In this document: positions 7,805 through 20,766 of the stretch, in pieces
Numbering within the stretch: position 1 is the first letter of the stretch
How the letters are laid out: each line of letters opens with the position of its first letter
Source of the DNA: a virus
Lineage: Duplodnaviria; Heunggongvirae; Uroviricota; Caudoviricetes
Reading direction: 5' to 3' (one strand)
IMG/VR virus record: IMGVR_UViG_2600254997_000022
DNA length: 20,766 bases
The notes under the pieces: model-generated
What the model saw: the letters and a program-made list of their open reading frames with translations, nothing else
What the model was told of the DNA's origin: nothing
The model's database searches: none
Position numbers and translations under genes: made by a program

Positions 7805-9114
7805 CCCTTAAGTTTTGCCTGATAGTAACTTTCCGGCAGATAGCCATGTGCGGTCACATAATCCTTAACCAGTGAAGGATCCTGCAACAGCATTTTGGTA
7901 TCAGTTTCTTCGTCCTTTGATTTGGTTACAGGAATACCGAGCCCGGCAATCTGTCGTTTCTGCATTCGAATAATTACGTCCTGCGCTTTATTCAACTCTC
8001 GCAAAAATGCCTCATTGCTGGTTGCTGACTTAATGCCATTTTGAGATTGCATAAGGGCAGCCCTTTCCCCTTCGGTTGGGTTAGAGCCAAAAGTCCCTTT
8101 GAGGCTAGGCAGAATAACCTTTAGGTTGTATTCATCAGCTTTGGCGCGTAGGCTTCGTGTGTCTTCTGCTACATCAGGAAGGAATCCAAACCCCAGCGTC
8201 AGGGGGTTATAGTTCTGCGAGCGGGTAACGGCCGAAGGATGTTTCCCTACAATTCCCGCCAGTTCATGACCCACTTCAAGCGCAGAGTTCAAGGAGTCGA
8301 TGTTACCTGCAACAGTATTAATTTTATCGTTCATCTTCTCCACTTTCGCCTGCTGTACTTTGCTCAGTTCAGCATTGAGCTTGTCTCTCTCGATGTCATT
8401 TTGAGCACGTCCAAGTCGTGCTTTCAGAACCATTTCTCTCGTGCGTAGTTGGTTATCGGATAGGACTTTGAACTGCTCCATATCGAGACGCCGATTACCC
8501 AGTTCCGCATTAACCTGAGCATTATATGCAGATGTATCTGCGTTCTGCTGTGCAATGCTCTGCCCTTGCTGCTTCTCTTGAACACTAAAGTAACTATTTG
8601 GATCAGCATGGAGGTGGATGAGGTCAGTGATTCTGTTGAATTCCTGTGGGTCATTCTGCCAAGACTGATAAACCTCTTCAGCAGGAAGACCAAATCGCTG
8701 TAATACTGGATTTGCCTGCTGAATGGCCTTCTGCATGGTCAGTGGATCTCCAGTTTGTGACGCAAGACGCAGATTCATGGCAGCGTCAGCGGTCTGTCGA
8801 TTTTGCTCAGCATCAATGAATCCCATCTGTTTTTGAGAATCAGCCATAAACTGGGGATACTGGGCCATTAACTTCTGCACGCCAACACGATCATTATTAG
8901 CTACCGCACTACCCAACCGTGCCTGATATTCTTTTAGCTGCTGGGAAATTTGCGCCTGCTGATTAATCTCAGCAACGCCTCTTAGCCCCTGTAGCGCCAT
9001 TAAACCTACGTTTGGCTGCTGCTGATACTGCACAGGCTGAGGAACGGAAGAACGAGGAGCATTATCATTTTGCGGTGCCATGCTAGGCAGCCCGCCAAGT
9101 TGCCATGTCGCCAT
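7795..9114 (-). CDS. Gln/Ala-rich coiled-coil protein, 439 aa; ejection/internal-virion-like
   Basis: Start overlaps the upstream stop (TAATG) and its stop overlaps the next start, so it is translationally coupled. Q/A-rich, low-complexity composition. Assignment is by composition and gene order only. Confidence 0.55.
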   Translation of the reverse strand: MATWQLGGLPSMAPQNDNAPRSSVPQPVQYQQQPNVGLMALQGLRGVAEINQQAQISQQLKEYQARLGSAVANNDRVGVQKLMAQYPQFMADSQKQMGFIDAEQNRQTADAAMNLRLASQTGDPLTMQKAIQQANPVLQRFGLPAEEVYQSWQNDPQEFNRITDLIHLHADPNSYFSVQEKQQGQSIAQQNADTSAYNAQVNAELGNRRLDMEQFKVLSDNQLRTREMVLKARLGRAQNDIERDKLNAELSKVQQAKVEKMNDKINTVAGNIDSLNSALEVGHELAGIVGKHPSAVTRSQNYNPLTLGFGFLPDVAEDTRSLRAKADEYNLKVILPSLKGTFGSNPTEGERAALMQSQNGIKSATSNEAFLRELNKAQDVIIRMQKRQIAGLGIPVTKSKDEETDTKMLLQDPSLVKDYVTAHGYLPESYYQAKLKGWQ

Positions 9115-9791
9115 TAGAATCCAAGCCCCCCAACAAGACCAATAAGCCCACCACCAATAGCCCCGGCGACATTACCTATACCCGGAACAACGGAACCAAG
9201 TTGCGCACCCGCTAAAGCGCCTGATGCCGCCCCACCAATACCACGCGCAAGACTGGATGGCTGCTGCGCCTGACCTGCACGAATAGCGCCAAGCCCCTGC
9301 AAGAGTTGTCCGGTATTATTGGCGTAGTTTTGCCCTGCTGTTGCCTGCCCTGATGCCGCATTCATCCCGACATTTAGCAGGTTTCCATAATTTTGCATTT
9401 GCCCACTGAGCCAATTGTTATAAAGCATGGGCGCAATGGAAGATAACTGGTTACTGGTAGCTGTTGAGCCAAGCCCCCCGGTAGCTTCTGCTGAGACAAG
9501 GTTCTGATAACGGGCCTGATCTGCCTGTGTTTTATATAAACCAGAACCAAAGAAATCATTCGCGGCTTTATTCTGCCCTTCCAGAGTCATCAGTCCTTGT
9601 AGTTGTTGTAAAGCAGGCAATCCGACTTCTGCATACGGCTTGAGATTATTCATCACCGTATTCCACTGCTCGCGCTGCAAATCAATTGCCTGCTGCTGGG
9701 CCTTCGCCTGAGCTTTAGAGGCACCACCATCACCGCCTTTTTCGTATACGGCACGATTGAGATATTTATGAGCTATATGGGTAATTAACAT
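9114..9791 (-). CDS. 225-aa protein with Gly-zipper C-terminus; ejection/internal-virion-like
   Basis: Start overlaps the upstream stop (ATGTTAA). C-terminus GIGGAASGALAGAQLGSVVPGIGNVAGAIGGGLIGLVGGLGF is a glycine-zipper/membrane-like segment. Confidence 0.55.
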   Translation of the reverse strand: MLITHIAHKYLNRAVYEKGGDGGASKAQAKAQQQAIDLQREQWNTVMNNLKPYAEVGLPALQQLQGLMTLEGQNKAANDFFGSGLYKTQADQARYQNLVSAEATGGLGSTATSNQLSSIAPMLYNNWLSGQMQNYGNLLNVGMNAASGQATAGQNYANNTGQLLQGLGAIRAGQAQQPSSLARGIGGAASGALAGAQLGSVVPGIGNVAGAIGGGLIGLVGGLGF

Positions 9792-10246
9792 TCGCTGAAT
9801 TCCTTATATTGTTGCCGAGTTAACTGATAAAGCATTACGCCGACGGGTTTACCACATCTGATATAAGCATCATCAAGGTGACCAACACGGGTAGCGCCAA
9901 GCAAACGGATAATTGCCCGTCCGTATTTGGTGGTGTCAGGAACCATGGTAATGCTGTTAAGGAATGGTGAGTTTTCGAGAAGCCATTTGCAGAATAATCG
10001 ATGCCCTTGCAGTGCATATTCACCACGGAATCCGGGGTCGTACACCGCATGGCATTCAACAATGTTATGCCAGAAGTTACGCACTTCATGAACGCCAGCC
10101 AGCACCAATCCTTCGTAGATACCGAGATATACCGCATCAGGCTTGATGTAGTACGTGTGCCCCGGCTCAACAATATTTTCGGTATTGCCAGGCTCGTTAA
10201 GAAAGGCCTGTAATCGCACAGGGTTATCAATAAATTTTAGTTCCAT
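9785..10246 (-). CDS. hypothetical protein, 153 aa
   Basis: First large ORF of the coupled operon; starts 16 bp downstream of the small upstream ORF. No domain recognised. Confidence 0.55.
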   Translation of the reverse strand: MELKFIDNPVRLQAFLNEPGNTENIVEPGHTYYIKPDAVYLGIYEGLVLAGVHEVRNFWHNIVECHAVYDPGFRGEYALQGHRLFCKWLLENSPFLNSITMVPDTTKYGRAIIRLLGATRVGHLDDAYIRCGKPVGVMLYQLTRQQYKEFSEC

Positions 10247-10552: not shown

Positions 10553-10872
10553 CGTTCTGTGTGTCAGGTTTTGACAGGTTTTTTATGGACTCTAAAAACT
10601 ATATTTATGGTGTCGCATTACTCTTCACGGCAGGCGCTTTTCAGTTCTGCCCTTGCTTCTGGCTCCATTGGTAATTTGATTCGCGATCAGCTATGCGGAT
10701 GGTTTGCTGAACAGGCATAACAACTTCTCAAGGGCTGTTTTCTGAACTACGAAAATTTCGTAGTGCTCACTTTCAAAAACGTCACGCCCTTGTACACAGG
10801 ATTTTACGAAAGTCTCGTAAAACACTCTCTGATGCCAGCCAGGTGTTGTGCGCATCAATTCAGTCACATTGT

Positions 10873-10974
10873 GTTGGTTCAAAATACCGTGTTGTTGGTT
10901 CAGTGTTGGTTCAATAAAAAGAATAAAATCCTTATAAAACAATACCCTTTATAAATTGAACCAACTGAACCAAC
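10873..10974. repeat. iteron array B: GTTGGTTCA at 10873, 10894, 10905 and tandem TGAACCAAC at 10957, 10966
   Basis: Begins 26 bp after the primase stop. Inverted, ~75% identical copy of module 1045-1165, including the shared spacer AATTT(A/G)TAAAG(G/A)GTATTGTTTT. Confidence 0.75.
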
Positions 10975-10999
10975 ACCTTTTCTACGCACATGAAGAAGC

Positions 11000-13759
11000 T
11001 CATTCTTCAGATGAGTTGTAATCTCCTGGCTGGTAATTGAGTACATAAACGTTTATTTGTCGTCCCTGAATACGTGGTGATTTTCTTTGGTATCCACGAC
11101 CGCTGTTTGGTGGGGTTAGCATCCCGGCTTTTTTCAACACTTCAGCAAACTGTTTTGCGTTGAAACCACATGCGATCTCCTTTTCAAATGTGGCCGGGAA
11201 TGTGTAGAAAATCATTGGGCTTTCGTCATGTTCTCCACGCTGACGGTATCCGGCTAAATCTTTGATGGGCAAATCTGCCGGGCTGTATGGAAATGGTGCA
11301 AAACGGCTAAGCCCATAGGCATTAAGAAATGCCTCCGTTTGTTCAATAATCTGCTGATGTTCTTTGTTACCTGTGCCGAACTCGCGCAACCATGCGTTAT
11401 AGCTGTGCTGTATCGCATCACGGCATGTCTGAGCATCCCAGCCTGTTACAACCTCGCCTAACAGCAATGCGGCCTCCAGAATGGCAAATCGCGCGGCTAC
11501 ACGGTGAACCTGCTCACCATAATCGGATGGGATCAGACTTCTCCATCTGCTTTCGCGGTCACGAACAGTTTTAATTGCCTGTTGCTGGTGGTCTGCCAGC
11601 CATTTAATCCACTCACGCCCGGCTGCGCCGTGGTGATGCTGGTAAGCGTCTTTCAGTGCGTCTGCGTGCTGTTTTCCGTTCTGGTAATCGTGAAAGCGTA
11701 CTGCTTTACTCAACGGAATATTCAGCAGTCGCACCAGTTGCCCGGCTTTGGTTTTTCGCCCGGAAGTAGCGATAAATGTTTCTAAATCCATTTCTCCGGT
11801 GCTGATTGCCACTGTACGCCAGCGTTTTAGATCCCGGTTTCCACCATCTTTAGCGCCTTGCAGTTTCCCTACACCGTTAAATAACGCATAGGCAGACTGT
11901 GAAACACTGACAGGATCAGCGCCCTGACCAACTTCATCAAGCGGCATTAGTCCGTCATTGTGGGCGGCAGCTTCATTTGCCAGCCCCAGCGCGGTTCCGT
12001 ACCACGTCAGCCGCAGTAAATCAGGGTTGCCGTATAAGCTGCTCGCCACGTTTGCCGTGGTGGTCTTACCTGCGCTCGACTGCTCATAGAAATGAATGCC
12101 GAACCCGTCAGCGCCCACCAGCCCAATCAATGGCGCTGCCAGTGCTGCGCCGATCCCGGTCATCATTGAATAGTTACCAAAGGCCAGACGCGCCACGTTA
12201 TCACGCCAGCTTTTCGCGCTCCCTGAGACGGTATATCCGGCTGCGGCTGAGCTTCTCCCGCTGAACAGCACAGGATTTTCAGGTGTTCCGATGATTTCCC
12301 CATCAGGCATGATGTACGCTCCGCATTGCCAGCCAGTGGCATGAGCAACACGCCACAATTCACGAGAGCCACTGCGTTGTAGCCAGTCTGCCAGTATTGC
12401 TCTGAGGCTGCTTTTGGTCGTGACATTTACCCCACCAGCTTTAAGTGTGCGCCATCCTTCACGTTCACCAATATCAGCCAGTGGAATGGCAGCGGTTGTC
12501 GGCGTTTCAGAACCAAACGACAGCCAGCGAAGAATGAGATACTGGTCTTTATCGTCTCTGCCAGTACCGATAACGCTTAACGGAGAACATAACCAGCTTT
12601 CGTTATTGATGATTTCTCCACTCTGGCTGTCAGCTCTCGGAGATACCCAATAAATACCATCCTCGCGGCTTTCTATTCTTGGTTTCAGTGGGTCGGTATC
12701 CATAACCTTAAAATCGCTTCCCTCAATGGTCTGTGGCTCCTGTTTCACGCCATTACCCTGTGGTTGGTACATTGACTTATTGAACGCTTCTGTGGCGCAT
12801 TTAATGCCGTGTTTTTGGTGGTAATCATTCCAGTCTGCTTTGTGATCTGTCGGGGGTAATGCCACCCATCCAGAAACAGATAAAGCTGCTTTTTCTGCTG
12901 CTCTTCTCCCCGTGTTTTGTCTTCCTTCGCTGTGGTCGTTATCCGCAGCAATGATGATTTGTGCTGAAGGAAATTTATCCCGCAGTACCTGGGCGACATA
13001 TAACAGGTTCCCGGCATCAATCGCCGCCACTGTCAGCGCCTCTGGGCGAATTAAATGGGCAGATAATGCCGTTGCCAGCCCTTCTGCGATTAAGATGCTC
13101 TGTGTTGTTTCTGGTGCGTTTATGGCGTGATATGCCCCTCGCTTTGCTGAACCTGTCAGGAGTCTTTTTTCACCATGTGAGGTAATAGTCTGTGCTGCTG
13201 TGACTGCGCCGGATTTATCCACCAGCGCCAGCAACAGAGATCCATCGGGCAACACGGGGAATGTAAAATCACCTACCCCTTTCGCAACCAGATAATCAGA
13301 TTTGCCGTTTACAGCCTTTCTGCGCATGTCATCAAACTGACGGGAAAACGTATCCCGTCTTTGTTGTTCGTCCTTCTCTGCCCTTTTCAGGCGCTCCTGT
13401 TCGCGTCGCTGGCGCTTGGTTTCCAGTTGTTCCCGTTTCTGGCTGGTGGCTTCTGGTGTTTCCGTTGTCCGGTAATCAATACCCAGAACATCAGCGGCAA
13501 GAAGCGCCGCCTCTGTTGTGTCGCAGTTATTTACGCGTTTAATTAAATCCAGCCCATCACCAGCGCCGCACTGATTACAGATGAAGCTACCGCGCCCGTT
13601 GTCATCGAACCGGAATCGATCTTTTCCCCCACATGCAGGGCAGGGAGCATGACGGCGCGGAGAGTCAGGGACATTTATGTTCAGGCAGCCCAGCACATGA
13701 GGCCAGTTGTTTTCAGACGCACTGATAACCTGACGGATAAGATCAATGTTTCGCATCAC
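11000..13759 (-). CDS. primase-helicase (zinc-ribbon + TOPRIM + P-loop NTPase), 919 aa
   Basis: Zinc ribbon CPACGG..FICNQCG near the N-terminus, TOPRIM-like LIAEGLATA...AADNDH, Walker A SSAGKTT. The first codon at 13759 is GTG; the ATG at 13756 is the likelier start. Confidence 0.85.
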   Translation of the reverse strand: MMRNIDLIRQVISASENNWPHVLGCLNINVPDSPRRHAPCPACGGKDRFRFDDNGRGSFICNQCGAGDGLDLIKRVNNCDTTEAALLAADVLGIDYRTTETPEATSQKREQLETKRQRREQERLKRAEKDEQQRRDTFSRQFDDMRRKAVNGKSDYLVAKGVGDFTFPVLPDGSLLLALVDKSGAVTAAQTITSHGEKRLLTGSAKRGAYHAINAPETTQSILIAEGLATALSAHLIRPEALTVAAIDAGNLLYVAQVLRDKFPSAQIIIAADNDHSEGRQNTGRRAAEKAALSVSGWVALPPTDHKADWNDYHQKHGIKCATEAFNKSMYQPQGNGVKQEPQTIEGSDFKVMDTDPLKPRIESREDGIYWVSPRADSQSGEIINNESWLCSPLSVIGTGRDDKDQYLILRWLSFGSETPTTAAIPLADIGEREGWRTLKAGGVNVTTKSSLRAILADWLQRSGSRELWRVAHATGWQCGAYIMPDGEIIGTPENPVLFSGRSSAAAGYTVSGSAKSWRDNVARLAFGNYSMMTGIGAALAAPLIGLVGADGFGIHFYEQSSAGKTTTANVASSLYGNPDLLRLTWYGTALGLANEAAAHNDGLMPLDEVGQGADPVSVSQSAYALFNGVGKLQGAKDGGNRDLKRWRTVAISTGEMDLETFIATSGRKTKAGQLVRLLNIPLSKAVRFHDYQNGKQHADALKDAYQHHHGAAGREWIKWLADHQQQAIKTVRDRESRWRSLIPSDYGEQVHRVAARFAILEAALLLGEVVTGWDAQTCRDAIQHSYNAWLREFGTGNKEHQQIIEQTEAFLNAYGLSRFAPFPYSPADLPIKDLAGYRQRGEHDESPMIFYTFPATFEKEIACGFNAKQFAEVLKKAGMLTPPNSGRGYQRKSPRIQGRQINVYVLNYQPGDYNSSEE

Positions 13760-14114
13760 CGTACCCCACGTGGTCTATAGCGTTTGCGATATGGCTAACC
13801 AGCATCTGCCACTTGGTTATTCCGTAATCAGTCAGCATGCCATCATTGTTTAGCCACATATCAAATTCAGCGGTTGTCGCAAGTTTCCACTGATCGCCGT
13901 GGACAGTTCTCATTGCTGGGTACATGAATGCGCAAATCAGATCACAAACATCTGACGGCTTCAGAGATGTAGTAATGGTGCGTCCCTCTGGCGTCTGAAT
14001 TGCCATTTTCTCTTCACCAGTAGAATGAAGGTTATGAATCCACACAGCACCAGCAATCTTTGCCACCTGCTCTCCGATTGCGGAGCTAAGCGCCATTTCT
14101 GCATTTTCACGCAT
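13743..14114 (-). CDS. hypothetical protein, 123 aa
   Basis: Overlaps both neighbours by 8-17 nt (translational coupling); protein-like composition. Confidence 0.55.
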   Translation of the reverse strand: MRENAEMALSSAIGEQVAKIAGAVWIHNLHSTGEEKMAIQTPEGRTITTSLKPSDVCDLICAFMYPAMRTVHGDQWKLATTAEFDMWLNNDGMLTDYGITKWQMLVSHIANAIDHVGYGDAKH

Positions 14115-14448
14115 GAGAACCTCCCGCTACAGTTGCGCCCATGTCATTAACCATGCTTTGCCATATCTCACGCCCGACGTCAGTCAATCCGTCCTTATTG
14201 ACGCAACGCTCAAGAAGCTCGATCCCCACGGTTTCCCACTGCGGGTAGAACACTTTCATGGCTGCCAGTGTGTAGCTATCGATCAGGCTGCGAACGCCTT
14301 TTACTCCATTGACGATTTCCACACGTACGGCCTTGCCGTCCGCATCAACCATGAAATAGTCCCCGTCGCTGGTGGAGGTAATGTGGTTATACAGTGCCGA
14401 CGCATACTTATTTGCCAGCGCATTCAGTCGGAAATTTTTAGTAATCAT
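14107..14448 (-). CDS. hypothetical protein, 113 aa
   Basis: Coupled to the downstream ORF by an 8-nt overlap; no domain recognised. Confidence 0.55.
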   Translation of the reverse strand: MITKNFRLNALANKYASALYNHITSTSDGDYFMVDADGKAVRVEIVNGVKGVRSLIDSYTLAAMKVFYPQWETVGIELLERCVNKDGLTDVGREIWQSMVNDMGATVAGGSHA

Positions 14449-14458
14449 GGCTCCATCC

Positions 14459-15061
14459 TCAGTGCGTCACTGGTTCCGCTGGCATGCCGTTTTCATTCAG
14501 TTCAGCTATAAAGCTGTTGTGAAGTTCAGCAAGCGTTTCACGACCAAATGGAGTCAGTGCTCCTTGTTCCACATCCATCATGGCTCTGTAGAAAATGATG
14601 GCGCGTTCTGTGCCAGACTCGATGCCAAAACGTTCTATCATCGCGCCCTCAATGTTGTTTGCCATAGCGAGACGCTCTGCTACTGGATACAGCGGCATGG
14701 CGACGATGCCGTTGGAATAAACAGCCACTTCGGAAGGATTGCCAGTATCATCAATGATGCTGACAGTGCCGTTTTCCTCTCTCATTTCCAGCATGAATAC
14801 TGTTGCGATCAGCCATCTCCACATAATGACGTTATGCTGTGATGTGTAATCGAAATATCCCTGGTTGCCGCCATCGGCAATAGCGAGATGTATTGACATA
14901 CCTTCATCTGGTTTATCGTCATAATCCCCGGCATCCAGACGATTTACGGCATCAATATATGAGACGGCCTCAACGCGTTCTGTCATGCCATCGTTGCTGC
15001 GGTACATGATGTTTACGCCGTCAGGCGTTGCTTCTGCATGGAACGTTAAGAAATTATTCAT
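14459..15061 (-). CDS. acidic hypothetical protein, 200 aa (ORF extends to 15166)
   Basis: The ATG at 15061 overlaps the upstream stop (15054-15056) and is preceded by GAGG; the longer ORF would overlap the upstream gene by 113 nt. Confidence 0.55.
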   Translation of the reverse strand: MNNFLTFHAEATPDGVNIMYRSNDGMTERVEAVSYIDAVNRLDAGDYDDKPDEGMSIHLAIADGGNQGYFDYTSQHNVIMWRWLIATVFMLEMREENGTVSIIDDTGNPSEVAVYSNGIVAMPLYPVAERLAMANNIEGAMIERFGIESGTERAIIFYRAMMDVEQGALTPFGRETLAELHNSFIAELNENGMPAEPVTH

Positions 15062-15275
15062 GTTTCGCCTCGCCTGAATGATTCTGTAACTCATATTTGC
15101 CCAACAATTCGTCCGCTTCCTGAATAGCTTCTGGTACGCCATTGAGCAGTGACATAACCGCGCCAATCATTAACTTGTCTCTGTTGCTGGGGCTGGCCCC
15201 TTCAAGCCAGAACCCTAAAACAGTCTGAACCTGTTCGATGCGACATTGCGCTTCGATGAGCTGGATGTTGGTCAT
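15054..15275 (-). CDS. hypothetical protein, 73 aa
   Basis: ATGA overlap with the upstream stop; GGAGAG RBS. Confidence 0.55.
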   Translation of the reverse strand: MTNIQLIEAQCRIEQVQTVLGFWLEGASPSNRDKLMIGAVMSLLNGVPEAIQEADELLGKYELQNHSGEAKHE

Positions 15276-15535
15276 TTCGCACTCTCCGCATCGATTAAAC
15301 TGATATCTATCAGAGAGGTAACTTTTTGTAGCCAGCTAGTGATTACTGTCGCCTGTTCCCCTCCCACCGATGGAAGAATCTCATTCATCACATGAACCAG
15401 ACCTGTGCGCGCTCTGGTAAGCCGTTCAGTCGTGCGATCTGCAAGAGTGAATGTGTCTGGATATGGCTCTTCACGGCTCAGCAATGATTCAATTTCCAGC
15501 TCACACGGATGACGATAAATTAAGTTGATATTCAT
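15272..15535 (-). CDS. hypothetical protein, 87 aa
   Basis: ATGA overlap with the upstream stop; GGGGGTG RBS. Confidence 0.55.
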   Translation of the reverse strand: MNINLIYRHPCELEIESLLSREEPYPDTFTLADRTTERLTRARTGLVHVMNEILPSVGGEQATVITSWLQKVTSLIDISLIDAESAK

Positions 15536-15726
15536 TTTTCACCCCCAAGAATTACCAGCTCTGCACGGGCATCGTTAACCAAAGATGAGCACGCTTTAAT
15601 CGCATCCACGACATCAACAGCGTCCATTTCTTCAGCCGAAAGATTGACAGCAACCAGGACAGCCGCTGCTTGCTCGATTAATTGAAGTGCGGACGTAAGT
15701 CGATGGGCATTAATTGAGTTATTCAT
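15532..15726 (-). CDS. hypothetical protein, 64 aa (ORF extends to 15783)
   Basis: The internal ATG at 15726 overlaps the upstream stop and is preceded by GGGGG. Confidence 0.5.
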   Translation of the reverse strand: MNNSINAHRLTSALQLIEQAAAVLVAVNLSAEEMDAVDVVDAIKACSSLVNDARAELVILGGEK

Positions 15727-15937
15727 TGGTTGCCCCCGTTTTTCCTGGCATTTCGCCACCTTCCAGCAGGAAATGAACGTCACGAACGGCGAGATCCAAT
15801 ATCGCGAGTAACGCCTTCAGTCTTTCGTCTCGTGAGGGAGAGTTGCTCACCAGAATGTCGTTAATCACTTCTGTCAGTGTGATGATCTGGCTTGTGCGTT
15901 CGAGGGGATCCATATGCACATCGTAGGTTTTAATCAT
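15719..15937 (-). CDS. hypothetical protein, 72 aa
   Basis: ATG at 15937..15935 is preceded by GGAGGTG and lies 3 nt after the upstream stop. The 5' extension of this ORF to 16351 is not protein-like. Confidence 0.5.
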   Translation of the reverse strand: MIKTYDVHMDPLERTSQIITLTEVINDILVSNSPSRDERLKALLAILDLAVRDVHFLLEGGEMPGKTGATNE

Positions 15938-16124
15938 GTGCCACCTCCATGCGGATACGACCAGCAAAAAAGCAGACGTGATCGCGCACCAGAGAACGGC
16001 GAGCATCGCGTTCAGACTCGGCAGCAATATGATGAATTTTGGCGGTAATTGTCGGGTAATCGCGGCGAACTGCGGCGATAATCCAGATAAATTGCGGTTT
16101 TTGGGTAGTGGTAGTAGCCAGCAT
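15930..16124 (-). CDS. hypothetical protein, 64 aa; first gene of the small-ORF operon
   Basis: AAGGAGG RBS 7 nt upstream of the ATG; preceded by a ~160-nt structured leader. Confidence 0.5.
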   Translation of the reverse strand: MLATTTTQKPQFIWIIAAVRRDYPTITAKIHHIAAESERDARRSLVRDHVCFFAGRIRMEVAHD

Positions 16125-16281
16125 GTGGCAGCCTCCTTGTACTGGGAATTCTTCCCACCACCGGAGCTGCGAAACTCGCTGGTGGTGGACTGAACAGAGT
16201 TCGCAGTACCGGCGTACAAGGAAACCGGCCAGCCTTTCGGCTGCCCTGTCCAGCCCACCATAATTTTACAAGCGACGCGGA

Positions 16282-16788
16282 TTATAACCACATCACCGAA
16301 AAAAGTGTGAGTCTGGCTAACGGCACAGAAAAAGACGCTCGGCGCGTCCATGTGTCGCCTCGTACATTTCCGGGCTTGCGAAACCCGGCACCCGTTTTAT
16401 GAGGTGCCTTATAACCATAAACCGTGTTGCCGCATAACGGCAAGCTCTTTTTTATGGACTCCGAAAACTCACTATTGGAAGAACCAGAAGCACAGTACAT
16501 CGCGCTCATTTCGTTAACGTCACGCGCGTAGACGAATGTTTTTGTGGAGTCACTACACGAGCAGAACAGGTGATCTACGACCAGAAATTCTCTGGCGCAG
16601 CCGCTGACCTTCTCAACGCTAACACCATCGACCGTAATTTCTGACATAGTTAAGGCATCCGCTCCTACCACCAGCAAATGATAAACTTTGCTTGTATCTG
16701 CTATATTAATGTCTGACTTTGCTGTCATATTGCTGGATTTTGGCGACATACCAGCCAGTGAAAATATCTTCTTCTGGGCGGTTAGCAT
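16282..16788 (-). CDS. hypothetical Cys-rich protein, 168 aa (C-terminal part doubtful)
   Basis: GGAGG RBS, and the start overlaps the upstream stop (ATGCTAA). The 3' third runs through hairpin-rich sequence with atypical composition. Confidence 0.4.
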
Positions 16789-18543: not shown

Positions 18544-19494
18544 TTAACTATCCACTTTGCCATTTGCCGCAGATCGTAGATGTTTAAGAATTACATCTTC
18601 ATTAGTTATCATAAGTGGTGGAACTTCGTCTAAATGACGAACAAGACAGTCACGCCACTTCTCAGGGCTTATTTCTTTCCTTTCTCCCCTGCATTCATTT
18701 GGATACTTACTAAGTATATAAATTGCAGATTTTAATAGTTTCTCCCTATTGACTGCGTACCGTTCGGCACGTTTATTAACTTTTAGCGTATTTATATCAT
18801 TGGATAACTTGTTTGCGGATGGTTTGTGCATGGGTCTGTCATAAATATATTTTCCTCCATTTATAAGAAGATTGTATTCATAGTCAGTTATATACATTTT
18901 GTTTCGGCTTATTTCATACCAGCCGTCAATATAAAAAGCTCCGATTTCATAATTATTCGATTTGCTAAACTCGTCACATCTCGGAGGCATCAGTTCGCAT
19001 ACAGAGATCTCCCAATCATCCCATTCTGATAGCTCCCGCTCATCGTTATCTATGAACGCAGGCGGAATTGCTAATAGACCGCTCCATCTTTCGATATCTC
19101 TTTCATCCTTCCCAACATTATATCGCTCTATAACTGAGAAATGTTCTGATTTGTATGAAAACCTCATAAAATACATATAGTTATCGCTATTTTTATAATC
19201 AGGTGATGATAAGCCATATGATTCGAGATTATCTGCCTTATTGCTCAGATCAAGGAGATAATTCTCATGTGCTGCTTTTGTATCTATATGAAAAATACTA
19301 TCTGTTTCAACTTTAAGTAATTCTGGCTCGGCATCTTCATTTTTTGGGTAATGGTAAAACAATTCAATAGGTGGAATTTTTATACATATTTCTAAAACCC
19401 CAATTGCTGCATAGTGTATTAAATCGGATACTTCACATCCGGCCAGTTTGGCTGCTTTATCCAAAGAATAATATTTATGCGCAGGTAATTTCAT
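18544..19494 (-). CDS. AT-rich hypothetical protein with N-terminal HTH-like segment, 316 aa (cargo gene next to the integrase)
   Basis: Starts 19 bp after the integrase stop, with GAGAGGA 10 nt upstream. N-terminus YSLDKAAKLAGCEVSDLIHYAAIG is HTH-like; the remaining ~270 aa have no recognisable motif. Appears clearly lower in GC than its neighbours (estimated by eye, about 38%). Confidence 0.7.
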   Translation of the reverse strand: MKLPAHKYYSLDKAAKLAGCEVSDLIHYAAIGVLEICIKIPPIELFYHYPKNEDAEPELLKVETDSIFHIDTKAAHENYLLDLSNKADNLESYGLSSPDYKNSDNYMYFMRFSYKSEHFSVIERYNVGKDERDIERWSGLLAIPPAFIDNDERELSEWDDWEISVCELMPPRCDEFSKSNNYEIGAFYIDGWYEISRNKMYITDYEYNLLINGGKYIYDRPMHKPSANKLSNDINTLKVNKRAERYAVNREKLLKSAIYILSKYPNECRGERKEISPEKWRDCLVRHLDEVPPLMITNEDVILKHLRSAANGKVDS

Positions 19495-19512: not shown

Positions 19513-20766
19513 TCATGCTCTGATTGGCGTTACGTTGTAGTCTTTTCCGCTTTCCAGTGCCACCAGCAGATCTGCCCACTGTGCCAGTGCTGCTTTACGC
19601 TCATCAAAATACTGATGACGGTTATAAATCCCCTCTACGCCCTTAATGCGATGATTGAGGCATCGTTCCGCCACGACAGGATCAACACCCAATGCTGCTA
19701 AATGAGTACGTGCGGTGCGTCGGAAGTCGTGAATCGTGAAATTAGGCACATCCGGCATTTCGGCGCGAACCTTAGCCAGTGCTACGGGTAAAGTGCTTTC
19801 CTGAATATGTGGGATCATTCTGTTTTGCATCTTCCTGGCCGGAAGCACCCATGCGCTATTACATGAAAAGGTGTGTAGCTCTCTCAACCATTCAACGGCT
19901 GGGGAAGGTAGAGGTATATCAATAGGGTCTCCGTTTTTGCTGCGTTCTTCCGGCAAATGCCATACCGCACCATCTAAATCAAACTCTTCCCATCGTGCGG
20001 CGCATAACTCCATCTTACGAACGCATAGTGCCAGCAATAGTTTAAATGTCAGTTCGTTTTGGCGGCTGAATCCTTTTGCGGTGCGCATAGCCTCGAATAG
20101 CCTGATAAGCTCATCGCGAGTTAGCCAACGGTCGCGGGAAACCTCTTTACCACCAGCATCAGATACTTCAAACGCTGAACAAGGGTTTATCTCCAGAGCG
20201 TGGCGTTTTATCCCATAGTCAAAGATACGGCGTGTCCAGCGTAATACATCTGTTGCTATCGTTGGTGCTCCTCGGTCAACGATACCTTTCAACATGTCGT
20301 CAATGTGGCGTGGCTTAACGTCCTCTACCTTCATATGCCCAATGCAGGGGTTAATATCCTTATCAATTCTCCGGCGAAGGATATCGGGATGTTTCCATCT
20401 CGGAAGTATCTGGCGCTCGAAGTATTCGGAGGCCAGATCTGAAACACGCATGGCGTTTTTCTCAGCCTCCATTTTTGCCAGTGCTTCAGCTTTTCGTTCC
20501 TGTTTCTCTGCTGCTACGTCATAGCCAAGAGCAACTCTGGCTGACAGCTCTTTCGCTGTTTCTCTGGCTTTTGATAGTGACAGTTCGGAGTAAGAGCCTA
20601 TAACCATAGCCCGCTGCTTTCCTGCGAGCTTATAGCGGAATCGCCAGAACGGGACTGTGTAGTTTTTGGGGTAGCAAATATAAAGGCCGTTGCCGTCTGC
20701 CTTGCCATCAAATCTGTCTCCCGCCTTTATCCATGCGCGGATCTGCATATCTGTGAGTTTTGGCAT
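19513..20766 (-). CDS. int: tyrosine site-specific integrase, P4 family, 417 aa
   Basis: C-terminal catalytic region with HDFRRTARTH and NRHQY (catalytic Tyr). N-terminus MPKLTDMQIRAW...DGNGLY resembles P4-type integrase N-termini. The start codon is at the window edge. Confidence 0.9.
   Translation of the reverse strand: MPKLTDMQIRAWIKAGDRFDGKADGNGLYICYPKNYTVPFWRFRYKLAGKQRAMVIGSYSELSLSKARETAKELSARVALGYDVAAEKQERKAEALAKMEAEKNAMRVSDLASEYFERQILPRWKHPDILRRRIDKDINPCIGHMKVEDVKPRHIDDMLKGIVDRGAPTIATDVLRWTRRIFDYGIKRHALEINPCSAFEVSDAGGKEVSRDRWLTRDELIRLFEAMRTAKGFSRQNELTFKLLLALCVRKMELCAARWEEFDLDGAVWHLPEERSKNGDPIDIPLPSPAVEWLRELHTFSCNSAWVLPARKMQNRMIPHIQESTLPVALAKVRAEMPDVPNFTIHDFRRTARTHLAALGVDPVVAERCLNHRIKGVEGIYNRHQYFDERKAALAQWADLLVALESGKDYNVTPIRA

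Follow-up and report, generated by a model that had tools for sequence, protein, structure and literature searches.

Eight small genes upstream of the primase of an EcCIMP1-like satellite: probable counterparts of the RNA-gated P4 replication operon

The left operon of P4 runs from the promoter PLE through seqA, the cI RNA, seqB, kil/eta, epsilon, orf151 and cnr to alpha. In the immI operon of P1 (c4 RNA, icd, ant) the C4 antisense RNA and its targets lie on one transcript, from which the RNA is processed. The downstream target covers the icd ribosome-binding site, and expression of the downstream gene requires the translation of icd. The equivalence of C4 and isrK to the CI RNA and seqA of P4 has already been published (PMC10111431, PMC3632133). 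EcCIMP1, the PICI of E. coli MP1, has been mobilised experimentally by the podovirus Kapi1 (Pick, Stadel and Raivio 2025, PMC11773190). The portions of that paper drawn on here demonstrate AlpA-dependent, helper-induced excision and transfer, and superinfection immunity against Kapi1 with no known defence system detectable. In those same portions the ORFs of the kind treated below are only 'hypothetical proteins', and neither the RNAs, the Icd/Kil equivalence nor a link to Cnr is described.

How does the present locus compare? The window, that is, the whole stretch of 20,766 nucleotides analysed (IMGVR_UViG_2600254997_000022), is an EcCIMP1-like PICI satellite inserted between yicC and dinD. 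Its layout is int, cargo, AlpA, AntA/AntB, DUF4222, RNAs, small ORFs and primase. The RefSeq accessions of O3–O8 and of the Icd-like protein are the same in MP1 and in the nearly identical EcPF14 island; these shared proteins and the layout bear out the original prediction that the element is a satellite. We consider it probable that its eight small genes, O1–O8, are the promoter-proximal genes of a replication ('left', alpha-type) operon, the structural counterpart of that of P4 and, like it, gated by RNA.

Promoter and RNA genes upstream of O1

Four features precede O1:
16414–16443, minus strand: PLE-like sigma-70 promoter (−35 TTGCCG, 16438–16443; 18-nt spacer; −10 TATGGT, 16414–16419)
16328–16407, minus strand: isrK / seqA-like leader RNA (Rfam RF01394 at 57.4 bits; gathering score 50)
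16178–16265, minus strand: antisense immunity RNA of the C4 / P4 CI type (Rfam RF01695 at 81.1 bits; gathering score 45)
16132–16173, minus strand: downstream, seqB-like target region (b2 UUCGCAG, 16167–16173; a2 GUACAAGGAGG, 16132–16142)

The promoter, which a simple consensus scan did not list, ends 6 nt ahead of the isrK 5' end. When the 60 nt upstream of isrK were aligned, the geometry TTGCC(G/T)...TATGGT/TATAGT was found in 9 of 11 elements, including P4, where we take the aligned position to be the PLE promoter. Within isrK the upstream target boxes, read by complementarity, lie at 16376–16382 (b1) and 16358–16365 (a1), and its 3' end has a predicted terminator-like site, an intrinsic-terminator hairpin (16333–16349) followed by a T run. 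Two 1-nt insertions are present in the isrK of the window, whose score is below that of its relatives; a related locus is also matched by the Rfam model c4-a1b1. The CI and seqA regions of P4 itself are found by the same two Rfam models.

The C4-type RNA carries a' in a loop (16214–16224, UUUCCUUGUAC) and b' in single-stranded form (16200–16206, CUGCGAA). The Shine-Dalgarno sequence of O1 lies inside the a2 box, the end of which is an invariant GGAGGCUGCC, 7–9 nt before the ATG. Across 11 elements, P4 and phiP27 included (alignment A4), 94.4% of the cells are paired between RNA and target, against 35–45% when the partner is slid by 1–3 columns. Compensatory changes occur in 13 of the 18 pairs, and none of 500 shuffles reached the observed values. 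Since the complementarity of RNA and target covaries from element to element, each island appears to have its own immunity specificity.

The original prediction overlooked the two RNA genes and the promoter (16178–16443), which we infer to control the operon, the regulatory steps being transferred from P4 and P1. The conserved promoter would drive isrK, with its a1/b1 targets and terminator, and then the C4/CI-type RNA. In the resting island the processed RNA would pair with the nascent transcript, blocking translation of O1 and causing premature termination, so that O1–O8 and the primase would stay silent. A helper phage would activate AlpA, and read-through transcription and translation from upstream would overcome the block. 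Thus de-silenced, O1–O8 and the primase would be translated as a coupled train.

The eight reading frames

The operon comprises the following genes:
15930–16124, minus strand: O1, 64 aa, Icd-like / P4 Kil-like; translation of the putatively gated operon starts here
15719–15937, minus strand: O2, 72 aa, small protein in the slot of P4 epsilon; a longer 'ash family' frame has its 3' end here
15532–15726, minus strand: O3, 64 aa, small protein without family match
15272–15535, minus strand: O4, 87 aa, kept more widely than the other small ORFs of the cassette
15054–15275, minus strand: O5, 73 aa, tandemly duplicated in one Cedecea island
14459–15061, minus strand: O6, 200 aa, beta-rich N-terminal extension and C-terminal Cnr-like (DUF5375-related) domain
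14107–14448, minus strand: O7, 113 aa, paralogue of O8
13743–14114, minus strand: O8, 123 aa, paralogue of O7
11000–13759, minus strand: primase-helicase, last gene of the operon (Zn ribbon, TOPRIM, DUF927; Pfam PF08273, PF13362, PF06048)

These had been described as eight consecutive, overlapping genes with good ribosome-binding sites. Eight consecutive ORFs do occupy 16124–13743. Overlaps of 8 nt, of the form ATGnnTAA or ATGnnTGA, join O1/O2, O2/O3, O5/O6 and O7/O8, and 4-nt ATGA overlaps join O3/O4 and O4/O5; O6 and O7, however, are separated by 10 nt. O8 overlaps the primase by 17 nt if counted from the GTG start and by 14 nt from the next ATG. The ribosome-binding sites hold up: purine-rich Shine-Dalgarno sequences precede all eight starts (AAGGAGG, GGAGGTGG, GGGGG, GGGGGTGA, GGAGAG, GGCGAGG, GAGGATGGAG, GGGAGG).

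Are the frames genes at all? Each has homologues of 40–85% amino acid identity in islands of Citrobacter, Serratia, Enterobacter, Kosakonia or Cedecea. In these cross-genus comparisons substitutions rank third > first > second codon position, with pN/pS or dN/dS of 0.1–0.65, which points to purifying selection on all eight frames. The original prediction had made conservation of the frames in related elements, and their dN/dS, the test of its claim that the genes are real; since the frames are conserved, as are the starts and overlaps, the claim stands. By these sequence criteria the eight ORFs are genuine genes and form a single operon in which starts and stops are coupled. That they are chance open frames, or decaying pseudogenes in a dead island, is extremely improbable. 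The window copy is indeed damaged elsewhere, an IS3-family element splitting its gp16-like gene, and the two insertions in isrK would fit decay, but the conservation analysis already contradicts such a reading; O6 and O7 have hundreds of protein clusters, and EcCIMP1, as described in the portions cited, can be mobilised with the same genes (PMC11773190). Among 5,426 complete E. coli genomes, 604 have the segment that holds these ORFs, and 253 of the 604 have 80% of it or more. The cassette is highly variable: the number of genes that separate the Icd-like gene from the primase ranges from 2 to about 7 in related islands (7 here), from which it follows that most members are dispensable for replication.

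The original prediction could assign a motif to none of the eight, and here it fails for two. O1 matches the Icd-like family NF033153 (E = 3.2e-20), with dN/dS of 0.13–0.28 against other genera, and O6 is related to P4 Cnr/DUF5375 in its C-terminal half. The P4 homologue of O1 has 65 aa (8168–8365) and is nested at the end of eta; we take this 65-codon ORF to be P4 kil, following the description by Mageeney et al. O1 is Icd-like and the counterpart of Kil; it would be the gatekeeper ORF and is a probable cell-division inhibitor. With O6 as a likely replication regulator, two of the eight can now be named; the rest are conserved proteins.

An Icd/Kil-like product that arrests or kills the cell could instead make the Icd-like gene, the small ORFs and the primase an abortive-infection or programmed-cell-death module, de-silenced by a protein of a superinfecting phage. 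This we regard as rather doubtful, although there is experimental precedent. In E. coli ECOR61, where cell death is triggered by the phage gene orf24, the death was suppressed by transposon insertions in the Icd-like gene and the next two small overlapping ORFs, and all six linked genes, including the primase, were required to rebuild the effect; in ECOR15 the same screen hit genes of a P4 prophage: AlpA, Icd-like, cnr-sized and primase (Silas et al., bioRxiv 10.1101/2023.04.06.535777). The ECOR61 layout (Icd-like, overlapping small ORFs, primase) is that of the window. On the other hand, the ECOR61 ORFs (about 61 and 63 aa) are putative homologues of O2 and O3 at most, the reconstituted effect was described as muted, and PADLOC finds no match; the phenotype may be the by-product of a de-repressed satellite lytic operon and not a selected defence.

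What of O2–O5? The O2 homologues of Citrobacter (L015) and Serratia (L017) are 42% identical to it and keep the ATG, the Shine-Dalgarno sequence and the 8-nt overlap; the pN/pS of O2 is 0.42–0.65. For O3 there are homologues in Cedecea (L013) and, at 40% identity, in Serratia (L017), with 27/20/41 differences by codon position. O4 is present in 8 of the 11 islands compared, at 48–59% identity and with an excess of third-position changes. O5 matches phrog_20558 (E = 3e-9), and its homologues have 43–48% identity and dN/dS of about 0.35. In the profile and structure searches that the original prediction had recommended, O2–O5 were left without relatives of known function, whereas O1 and O6 became nameable: none of the four matched Pfam (including Derepression, the epsilon family), NCBIfam, PADLOC or PDB entries. 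By tblastn O4 had no match in 50,697 phage records and O5 none in deposited phage genomes; O2 and O3 were absent from deposited phage genomes in a 2.9-kb DNA search. We regard O2–O5 as small mosaic accessory proteins in the epsilon slot of P4, whose targets may be helper or host proteins.

It is possible, if not the reading we favour, that some or all of O2–O8 are helper-manipulating or interference proteins; for O2–O5 this is compatible with the P4-type operon. They might derepress a helper prophage, as P4 epsilon does, redirect helper functions, or confer the Kapi1 immunity of EcCIMP1, for which no known defence system is detectable in the account cited (PMC11773190). The start of epsilon overlaps the kil stop by 8 nt, exactly the place of O2. 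The mosaic cassette differs between islands as arms-race genes do, and the absence of O4 and O5 from deposited phage genomes would agree. But O2–O5 resemble none of the entries searched, local profile searches against all P4 ORFs tie only O6 to a P4 protein, and ordinary temperate phages also have O6 and O7, in their early-left operons. For the immunity phenotype the conserved P22-like ejection-protein genes of the island are equally good candidates.

O2 might also be no separate gene but the C-terminal end of a long 'ash family' (P4 Eta-like) protein, which we think unlikely. PGAP annotates an ash family protein of 355 aa whose stop is that of O2, as in EcPF14, but flags the long frame as incomplete in MP1 and CRE1540, leaving O2 unannotated there. 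The O2 frame is open for 225–356 codons upstream in E. coli, Citrobacter and Serratia, crossing the Icd-like gene in the +1 frame, and synonymous recoding gives such an open frame with a chance of 0.17, 0.21 and 0.009, respectively; yet substitutions in the Icd-like segment track the Icd frame, not that of O2. The two 1-nt insertions interrupt the long frame upstream in the window, and the Pfam Phage_ASH match coincides exactly with the C4 RNA gene. O2 moreover keeps its own ATG, Shine-Dalgarno sequence and ATGnnTAA overlap at 42% protein identity. As with P4 kil within eta (PMC10111431), both products may exist as nested genes.

O6 to O8, the primase and a candidate origin

O6 matches phrog_1515 (E = 6e-47; dN/dS 0.11–0.27). 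Cnr (ORF106, Pfam DUF5375) regulates the replication copy number of P4. A profile of the O6 family (80 representatives) gives P4 Cnr 23.1 bits, while none of 2,000 shuffles exceeds 8.0, and aligns Cnr residues 35–101; the Cnr-like domain of O6 spans roughly residues 75–200. The two share the motif NIEG/ELEG...G.E.G...LS..G and a C-terminal histidine in the profile alignment, and both are encoded upstream of a primase. Three O6 homologues have a precomputed PF17345 match, and the distant family members P0392 and P0394 match it weakly (E = 0.015 and 0.0075); O6 itself falls below Pfam DUF5375 at any listed E-value, direct hhalign against the single Cnr sequence is weak (E = 0.028, probability < 2%), and the predicted structure is poor (pLDDT 55). 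O6 is also twice the length of Cnr, and O7 and O8 separate it from the primase.

O7 and O8 match each other by blastp (E = 2.6e-5 over 97 aa) and share invariant L55, W71, G92 and W96 (O7 numbering; alignment A3). Their homologues have 52–71% identity and pN/pS of 0.32–0.35. The confident O7 model (pLDDT 91, given for the O7/O8 paralogues) consists of a helix, a beta-hairpin and three helices, and matched nothing among solved or viral predicted structures. An even weaker link joins O7/O8 to the Cnr-like domain (hhalign P = 6e-4, probability 11%), and it comes mainly from the order of secondary structure; an O6–O7 fusion protein exists (P0294).

In related islands the primase is always abutted by O6, O7 or O8, and O8 directly precedes and overlaps the DUF927 primase in several genera. 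In P4 itself cnr is immediately upstream of alpha, as in 90% of P4-like elements (PMC8628076). Just downstream of the primase stop, in AT-rich DNA, there are repeats:
10871–10976, no strand assigned: candidate replication origin with five GTTGGTTCA repeats, three in direct and two in inverted orientation
By analogy only, these resemble the octamer iterons of P4 bound by alpha. Its domain makes O6 a likely replication regulator, with putative binding to the initiator. Probably together with O7 and O8, it would modulate the primase-initiator at the iteron origin. Since homologues of O6 and O7 lie in the early-left operons of phiP27 and phi467, far from any P4-type primase, a primase-specific role may not hold for the whole family.

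Comparison with EcCIMP1, P1 and P4

EcCIMP1 and the window belong to one island family, with the RefSeq proteins noted above in common and about 97–99% DNA identity over the segment. They differ in site, EcCIMP1 lying at tRNA-Thr beside proA, in integrase and in cargo gene, and in the IS within the gp16-like gene of the window copy. With P1 immI the window shares a C4-type antisense RNA, a downstream target over the ribosome-binding site of the Icd-like gene, and the Icd-like family to which O1 belongs. What is gated differs: P1 and phiP27-like Stx phages gate an antirepressor, whereas here it would be small proteins in a train together with the replication primase.

The likeness to P4 extends over the operon: the geometry of the promoter, the two RNA genes, target boxes of which the second sits on the Shine-Dalgarno sequence of a 64–65-aa Icd/Kil-like ORF, a next gene that begins 8 nt before the stop of that ORF, a Cnr-related protein upstream of a primase-helicase, and iterons near the primase. 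Differences are found in what the operon carries. Seven genes separate the Icd-like gene from the primase, against three in P4, with no homologue of epsilon or orf151 among them. The Cnr-like domain has an N-terminal extension of roughly 70 aa and is followed by two extra paralogues, and the Icd-like ORF is read in a different frame from the long Eta/Ash-like ORF, the two sharing one frame in P4. The element lacks sid, delta and psu and has P22-like ejection genes instead. Its primase is of the TOPRIM and DUF927 type, whereas alpha is of the D5_N / P4 family; sister islands of the window do use a P4-family primase.

The eight reading frames and the island that carries them

Are the eight small reading frames in front of the primase genuine genes, as the original prediction held, or frames left open by chance? 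These frames, here called O1 to O8, form a train that runs into the primase gene.

Table. Reading frames of the operon, with dN/dS or pN/pS
15930–16124, minus strand: O1, 64 aa, 0.13–0.28
15719–15937, minus strand: O2, 72 aa, 0.42–0.65
15532–15726, minus strand: O3, 64 aa, 0.58
15272–15535, minus strand: O4, 87 aa, 0.31–0.57
15054–15275, minus strand: O5, 73 aa, 0.34–0.60
14459–15061, minus strand: O6, 200 aa, 0.11–0.27
14107–14448, minus strand: O7, 113 aa, 0.11–0.17
13743–14114, minus strand: O8, 123 aa, 0.32–0.35
11000–13759, minus strand: primase, 919 aa

The O1–O8 segment is found in 604 of 5,426 complete E. coli genomes (about one in nine). For some of the ORFs these copies are too similar to be informative, and related islands from five other genera (Kosakonia, Enterobacter, Cedecea, Citrobacter and Serratia) were therefore brought in. 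Each of O1–O8 has a homologue there at 40–85% amino-acid identity, with substitutions most frequent at codon position 3, fewer at position 1 and fewest at position 2. Since the frames are retained in the related elements, the loss of frame that would speak against coding was not seen. Conserved frames, substitutions of the coding type and dN/dS or pN/pS of 0.11–0.65 bear out the prediction; judged by this conservation, the eight ORFs are real genes.

A purine-rich Shine–Dalgarno motif precedes each of the eight starts, in agreement with the good ribosome-binding sites first reported. The overlap of start with stop, claimed for the whole train, holds for every junction except O6/O7, where there is instead a gap of 10 nt. 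At four of the O1–O8 junctions the overlap is 8 nt (ATGnnTAA or ATGnnTGA) and at two it is ATGA, while O8 overlaps the primase by 17 nt counted from its GTG start, or by 14 nt from the next ATG.

Relatives of the segment are spread across the Enterobacterales. The names it receives from annotation pipelines are ‘hypothetical’, ‘ash family protein’ and even ‘nicotinic acetylcholine receptor subunit beta’. PGAP gives the last of these names, together with ‘ubiquinol-cytochrome C reductase’, to homologues of O4 and of a neighbouring small ORF (4961–5535 in the related locus L006, and several E. coli records), and in Klebsiella phage records O6 homologues are called ‘2-polyprenylphenol hydrolase’. 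Names of these three types look like propagated mis-annotations.

What kind of element carries these genes? Pfam matches and gene order give the layout of a PICI: integrase, AlpA and primase stand in canonical order, and capsid, terminase and lysis genes are absent.

Table. Genes around the operon, in order
19513–20766: tyrosine integrase
next: low-GC cargo ORF, AlpA-family regulator, AntA/AntB antirepressor, DUF4222 protein, small ORFs
primase domains: Zn-ribbon, TOPRIM, DUF927
then: P22-like gp14, gp7, gp20 and gp16 genes
then: PerC regulator

O3–O8 and the Icd-like protein have identical RefSeq accessions in E. coli MP1, where they map to the EcCIMP1 coordinates. Gene order and the proteins common to MP1 thus identify the window as an EcCIMP1-type PICI, and the satellite setting that had been supposed is upheld. 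In the available text of the EcCIMP1 paper (PMC11773190), EcCIMP1 is a PICI that is excised and transferred only with the podovirus Kapi1 and that requires its own AlpA; counterparts of the present ORFs appear in that text as hypothetical proteins only. The two copies differ in position, the window's lying between yicC and dinD and EcCIMP1 at tRNA-Thr. Helper-dependent transfer was shown for EcCIMP1 itself, whereas the window copy is interrupted by an IS and is known here from its sequence.

That insertion is an IS3-family element (5973–7187, plus strand; HTH_Tnp_1 and rve domains; ALIL frameshift pseudoknot at 6254–6370) lying in the gp16-like gene, with its own transposase ORF in two pieces (6296–6880 and 6738–7187). 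The P22-like ejection-protein genes, gp14 (DUF2824), gp7, gp20 (Inj_translocase) and gp16 (SLT domain), occupy 7190–10246 and 4460–5818. They are a conserved late module of the PICI family in E. coli, Citrobacter and Serratia (related loci L015–L017 and L007). They offer another candidate explanation of the superinfection immunity described for EcCIMP1. Between integrase and alpA, a stretch of 35% GC holds a 316-aa ORF (18544–19494, minus strand) that has no Pfam or PADLOC match. In related islands the slot is filled by DUF6387 or other genes, so that it looks like a place for variable cargo or a defence hotspot. The Rfam int-alpA RNA motif (RF02996) lies between int and alpA in six related islands (L005, L006, L011, L013, L014 and L017); Rfam at its gathering threshold does not report it for the window. 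Just downstream of the primase stop, AT-rich DNA contains five copies of GTTGGTTCA, three direct and two inverted (10871–10976), a candidate iteron origin of replication.

The RNA control region and the Icd-like gene

Directly upstream of O1, and on the operon strand, lie two RNA genes.

Table. Features of the control region
16328–16407, minus strand: isrK RNA (Rfam, 57.4 bits against a gathering threshold of 50)
16178–16265, minus strand: C4 antisense RNA (Rfam RF01695, 81.1 bits against a gathering threshold of 45, full-length model)
ending 6 nt before isrK: promoter TTGCCG–18 nt–TATGGT, found by alignment and conserved in 9 of 11 elements
16091–16348, minus strand: Pfam Phage_ASH match, within a 210-aa ORF (15719–16351), overlying the C4 gene and the end of isrK
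15930–16124, +1 frame: open second frame across the Icd-like gene (likewise 4600–5427 in L015 and 4697–5605 in L017)

The C4 and isrK models also match the CI RNA and the seqA region of satellite P4, an equivalence that has been published (PMC3632133; PMC10111431). The hairpin loop of the C4 RNA (a′, UUUCCUUGUAC) is complementary to the a2 box GUACAAGGAGG, which includes the O1 Shine–Dalgarno sequence and stops 7 nt short of the O1 ATG (16124); P4 has a matching arrangement. The complement of a single-stranded segment, b′ (CUGCGAA), is UUCGCAG, which lies 25 nt upstream of a2. Within isrK there is a second copy of both targets (a1 and b1), followed by a terminator-like hairpin at 16333–16349.

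Do loop and target change together? Read side by side in 11 elements, P4 and phiP27 included, the loop sequence is specific to the element and the targets match their own loop. In this alignment 94.4% of the cells are standard pairs, against 35–45% when the partner is slid by 1–3 columns; 13 of the 18 pairs have changes on both sides, and none of 500 shuffles came as high as the value observed. We found no earlier description of this covariation, quantified across PICIs, P4 and Stx-type phages, in those parts of the literature that were accessible. The promoter has the geometry of the P4 PLE promoter; a simple promoter scan did not pick it up. RNA genes, targets, promoter and the geometry for translational coupling are all seen in the sequence, as is covariation across the 11 elements.

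An isrK–C4 module also stands in front of an antirepressor in phiP27-like Stx phages: the Stx1a phage Stx1_14040 (2345–2650 in locus L047) and phiP27 itself (9500–9760 in locus L008). The b′ and b2 boxes of Stx1_14040 are exactly those of the window and its a′ loop is different, so partial cross-talk between the immunity RNAs of island and phage is conceivable. Specificity loops that vary between islands, and that are in part common to Stx phages, leave room for it.

O1 is the first ORF after the C4/CI RNA, whose target takes in the O1 ribosome-binding site. The O1 protein matches NF033153 (Icd-like, P4 Kil-like) over residues 12–59 at 71.9 bits (curated cut-off 25; E = 3.2e-20). P4 has a 65-codon homologue that follows a box of identical sequence, GGAGGCUGCC, and is nested in frame within the last part of the long eta ORF; by the description of Mageeney et al. 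(PMC10111431) it is P4 kil.

Is O2 the end of an eta-like protein? PGAP's merged call makes it so, as the end of a 355-aa ‘ash family protein’. A long Ash/Eta-like frame does cross both RNA genes, then the Icd-like gene (there as the +1 frame), and terminates as O2; in the nearly identical island EcPF14 it is intact (355 aa). The O2 frame is open far upstream, across the Icd-like gene, in E. coli, Citrobacter and Serratia, the chance of an open frame under synonymous recoding being 0.17, 0.21 and 0.009, respectively. In the window, however, two insertions of 1 nt within isrK, at 16376 and 16348, interrupt the long frame. O2 has, moreover, its own conserved start: at 42% identity the ATG, the Shine–Dalgarno sequence and the 8-nt overlap all persist. 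The Phage_ASH match, furthermore, sits exactly on the C4 RNA gene. Since match and RNA genes coincide, the label ‘ash family protein’, like the Pfam Phage_ASH family, is largely a translation across RNA genes. Satellite-detection schemes in which the Phage_ASH family serves as an epsilon marker are affected by this. The open O2 frame across the Icd-like gene may reflect overlapping or nested coding, as in P4 eta/kil; were the long frame translated, two proteins, an RNA repressor and the target of that repressor would all be encoded in one stretch of DNA.

Cnr-like and accessory proteins

According to the original prediction none of the ORFs had an assignable motif. That no longer stands, as O1 is named by NF033153 and O6 is linked by profile to P4 Cnr; two proteins can now be called Kil/Icd-like and Cnr-like. 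In scans of all eight proteins against Pfam, NCBIfam, PHROGs and PADLOC, O1 alone received a name. The PHROG families matched by O5, O6 and O7 have no known function, and PADLOC-DB 2.0 has no family for any of O1–O8 at E ≤ 0.01.

The link of O6 to Cnr came from a wider profile. The O6 family comprises about 550 clusters, every one annotated as hypothetical, and a profile search of 1.84 billion representatives returned 145 relatives. Two short, distant relatives match weakly to Pfam DUF5375, the family of P4 ORF106 (Cnr). P4 Cnr obtains 23.1 bits from a profile of the O6 C-terminal domain (80 representatives), while the highest score among 2,000 shuffles of the Cnr sequence is 8.0; O7 scores 6.1 bits against this profile. 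PF17345 (DUF5375) does not match O6, O7 or O8 even at E ≤ 10, with P4 ORF106 itself at 210.9 bits. Narrow O6 or O8 alignments compared by hhalign with the single P4 Cnr sequence gave nothing significant, as did O7/O8 profiles against all P4 ORFs. At the level of a family profile, then, homology of O6 to P4 Cnr is detectable, and the accessible literature yielded no earlier description of it.

What of O7 and O8? By blastp the two are paralogues (E = 2.6e-5), and a joint alignment could be made. The AlphaFold2 model of O7 (pLDDT 91.2, pTM 0.84) consists of a long helix, a beta-hairpin and three helices. The O6 model is poor (pLDDT 55), although the order of secondary-structure elements in its C-terminal half matches that of O7. 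The O7/O8 profile aligns with the O6 profile at P = 6e-4 (hhalign), and in a 336-aa protein of the representative library (P0294) an O6-like and an O7-like half are naturally fused. On these grounds O6, O7 and O8 are likely three diverged Cnr-like modules. PDB sequence searches with the O6 and O7/O8 profiles returned nothing meaningful. O7/O8 are a paralogue family whose model is confident and for which no structural relative is known, and they are candidates for follow-up; in the literature accessible to us we found no earlier description of this family.

In P4, Cnr binds the alpha protein. Cnr is the copy-number regulator of P4; its gene lies immediately before alpha, and 90% of P4-like satellites have it (PMC8628076). 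The last of O6, O7 and O8, whichever it is, directly adjoins the primase in related islands. From gene position, a Cnr-type binding of the primase-initiator that limits replication might be expected. O6 and O7 are found also in the early-left operons of temperate phages, for example phiP27 and phi467.

The cassette that separates the Icd-like gene from the primase is mosaic, with 2 to about 7 genes in related islands and 7 here, and its slots are taken elsewhere by alternative small ORFs. In a Cedecea davisae island (L013, 5111–5571) O5 is duplicated in tandem. O2–O5 match nothing in Pfam, NCBIfam, PADLOC or the PDB, and O4 and O5 have no tblastn match among 50,697 phage records. Used against viral contigs, O2 and O3 gave relatives of 92–100% identity only; their diverged homologues came from loci fetched through O6 and O8. 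O2, O3 and O5 all look helix-loop-helix; iterative jackhmmer on the local small-ORF set did not link them, and paralogy among them was rejected for want of evidence.

Such small genes are candidates for a helper-manipulating role. Their place is consistent with that of P4 epsilon, and the superinfection immunity of EcCIMP1 is unexplained in the available text of its description (PMC11773190). Sequence, however, lends this no support: none of O2–O5 matches the epsilon family (Pfam Derepression, PF25738) at E ≤ 0.1, P4 epsilon itself scoring 170 bits in the same library, and a relation to epsilon or orf151 was not detectable.

Close to this is an idea drawn from the work of Silas et al. on E. 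coli ECOR61, where a six-gene module, including an Icd-like gene, the pair of small overlapping ORFs that follow it and a primase linked to these, was required for cell death set off by a phage accessory gene. By analogy, the O1-type gene and the small ORFs behind it would be akin to that module. The Icd-like gene and O2–O5, possibly joined by O6–O8 (the three Cnr-like proteins) and the primase, would be a phage-sensing switch, a reading we regard as rather unlikely. A protein of a superinfecting or helper phage would lift the RNA-mediated block, and the products would arrest the cell or act on the helper. If so, a very common cassette would be both the determinant of EcCIMP1 superinfection immunity and a relative of the ECOR61 module. 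Both for the phenotypes of EcCIMP1 that are directed at its helper and for the cell-death module of ECOR61, O2–O5 are the candidates that remain.

Proposed regulation of the operon

How might a train of eight genes and a primase be held silent until a helper arrives? The anatomy of the P4 left operon and of P1 immI suggests, by analogy, a model of the resting state. A short transcript would be made from the constitutive promoter and processed, we infer, into the C4/CI-like RNA. This would pair with a1/b1 and a2/b2 of new transcripts, hiding the O1 ribosome-binding site; premature termination would follow and the whole train, primase included, would stay silent. Helper-induced AlpA would bring transcription and translation from upstream through the region and so relieve the repression. 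After read-through the overlapping starts and stops would couple translation as far as the primase. Processing, termination and de-repression are all modelled on P4 and P1. To view the operon as RNA-gated in the manner of P4 yields a testable regulatory model of PICI activation. We conclude that it is an expanded antisense-RNA-gated early operon of the P4/P1 type within a published PICI family, its control region and genes having the anatomy of the P4 left operon and the P1 immI operon.
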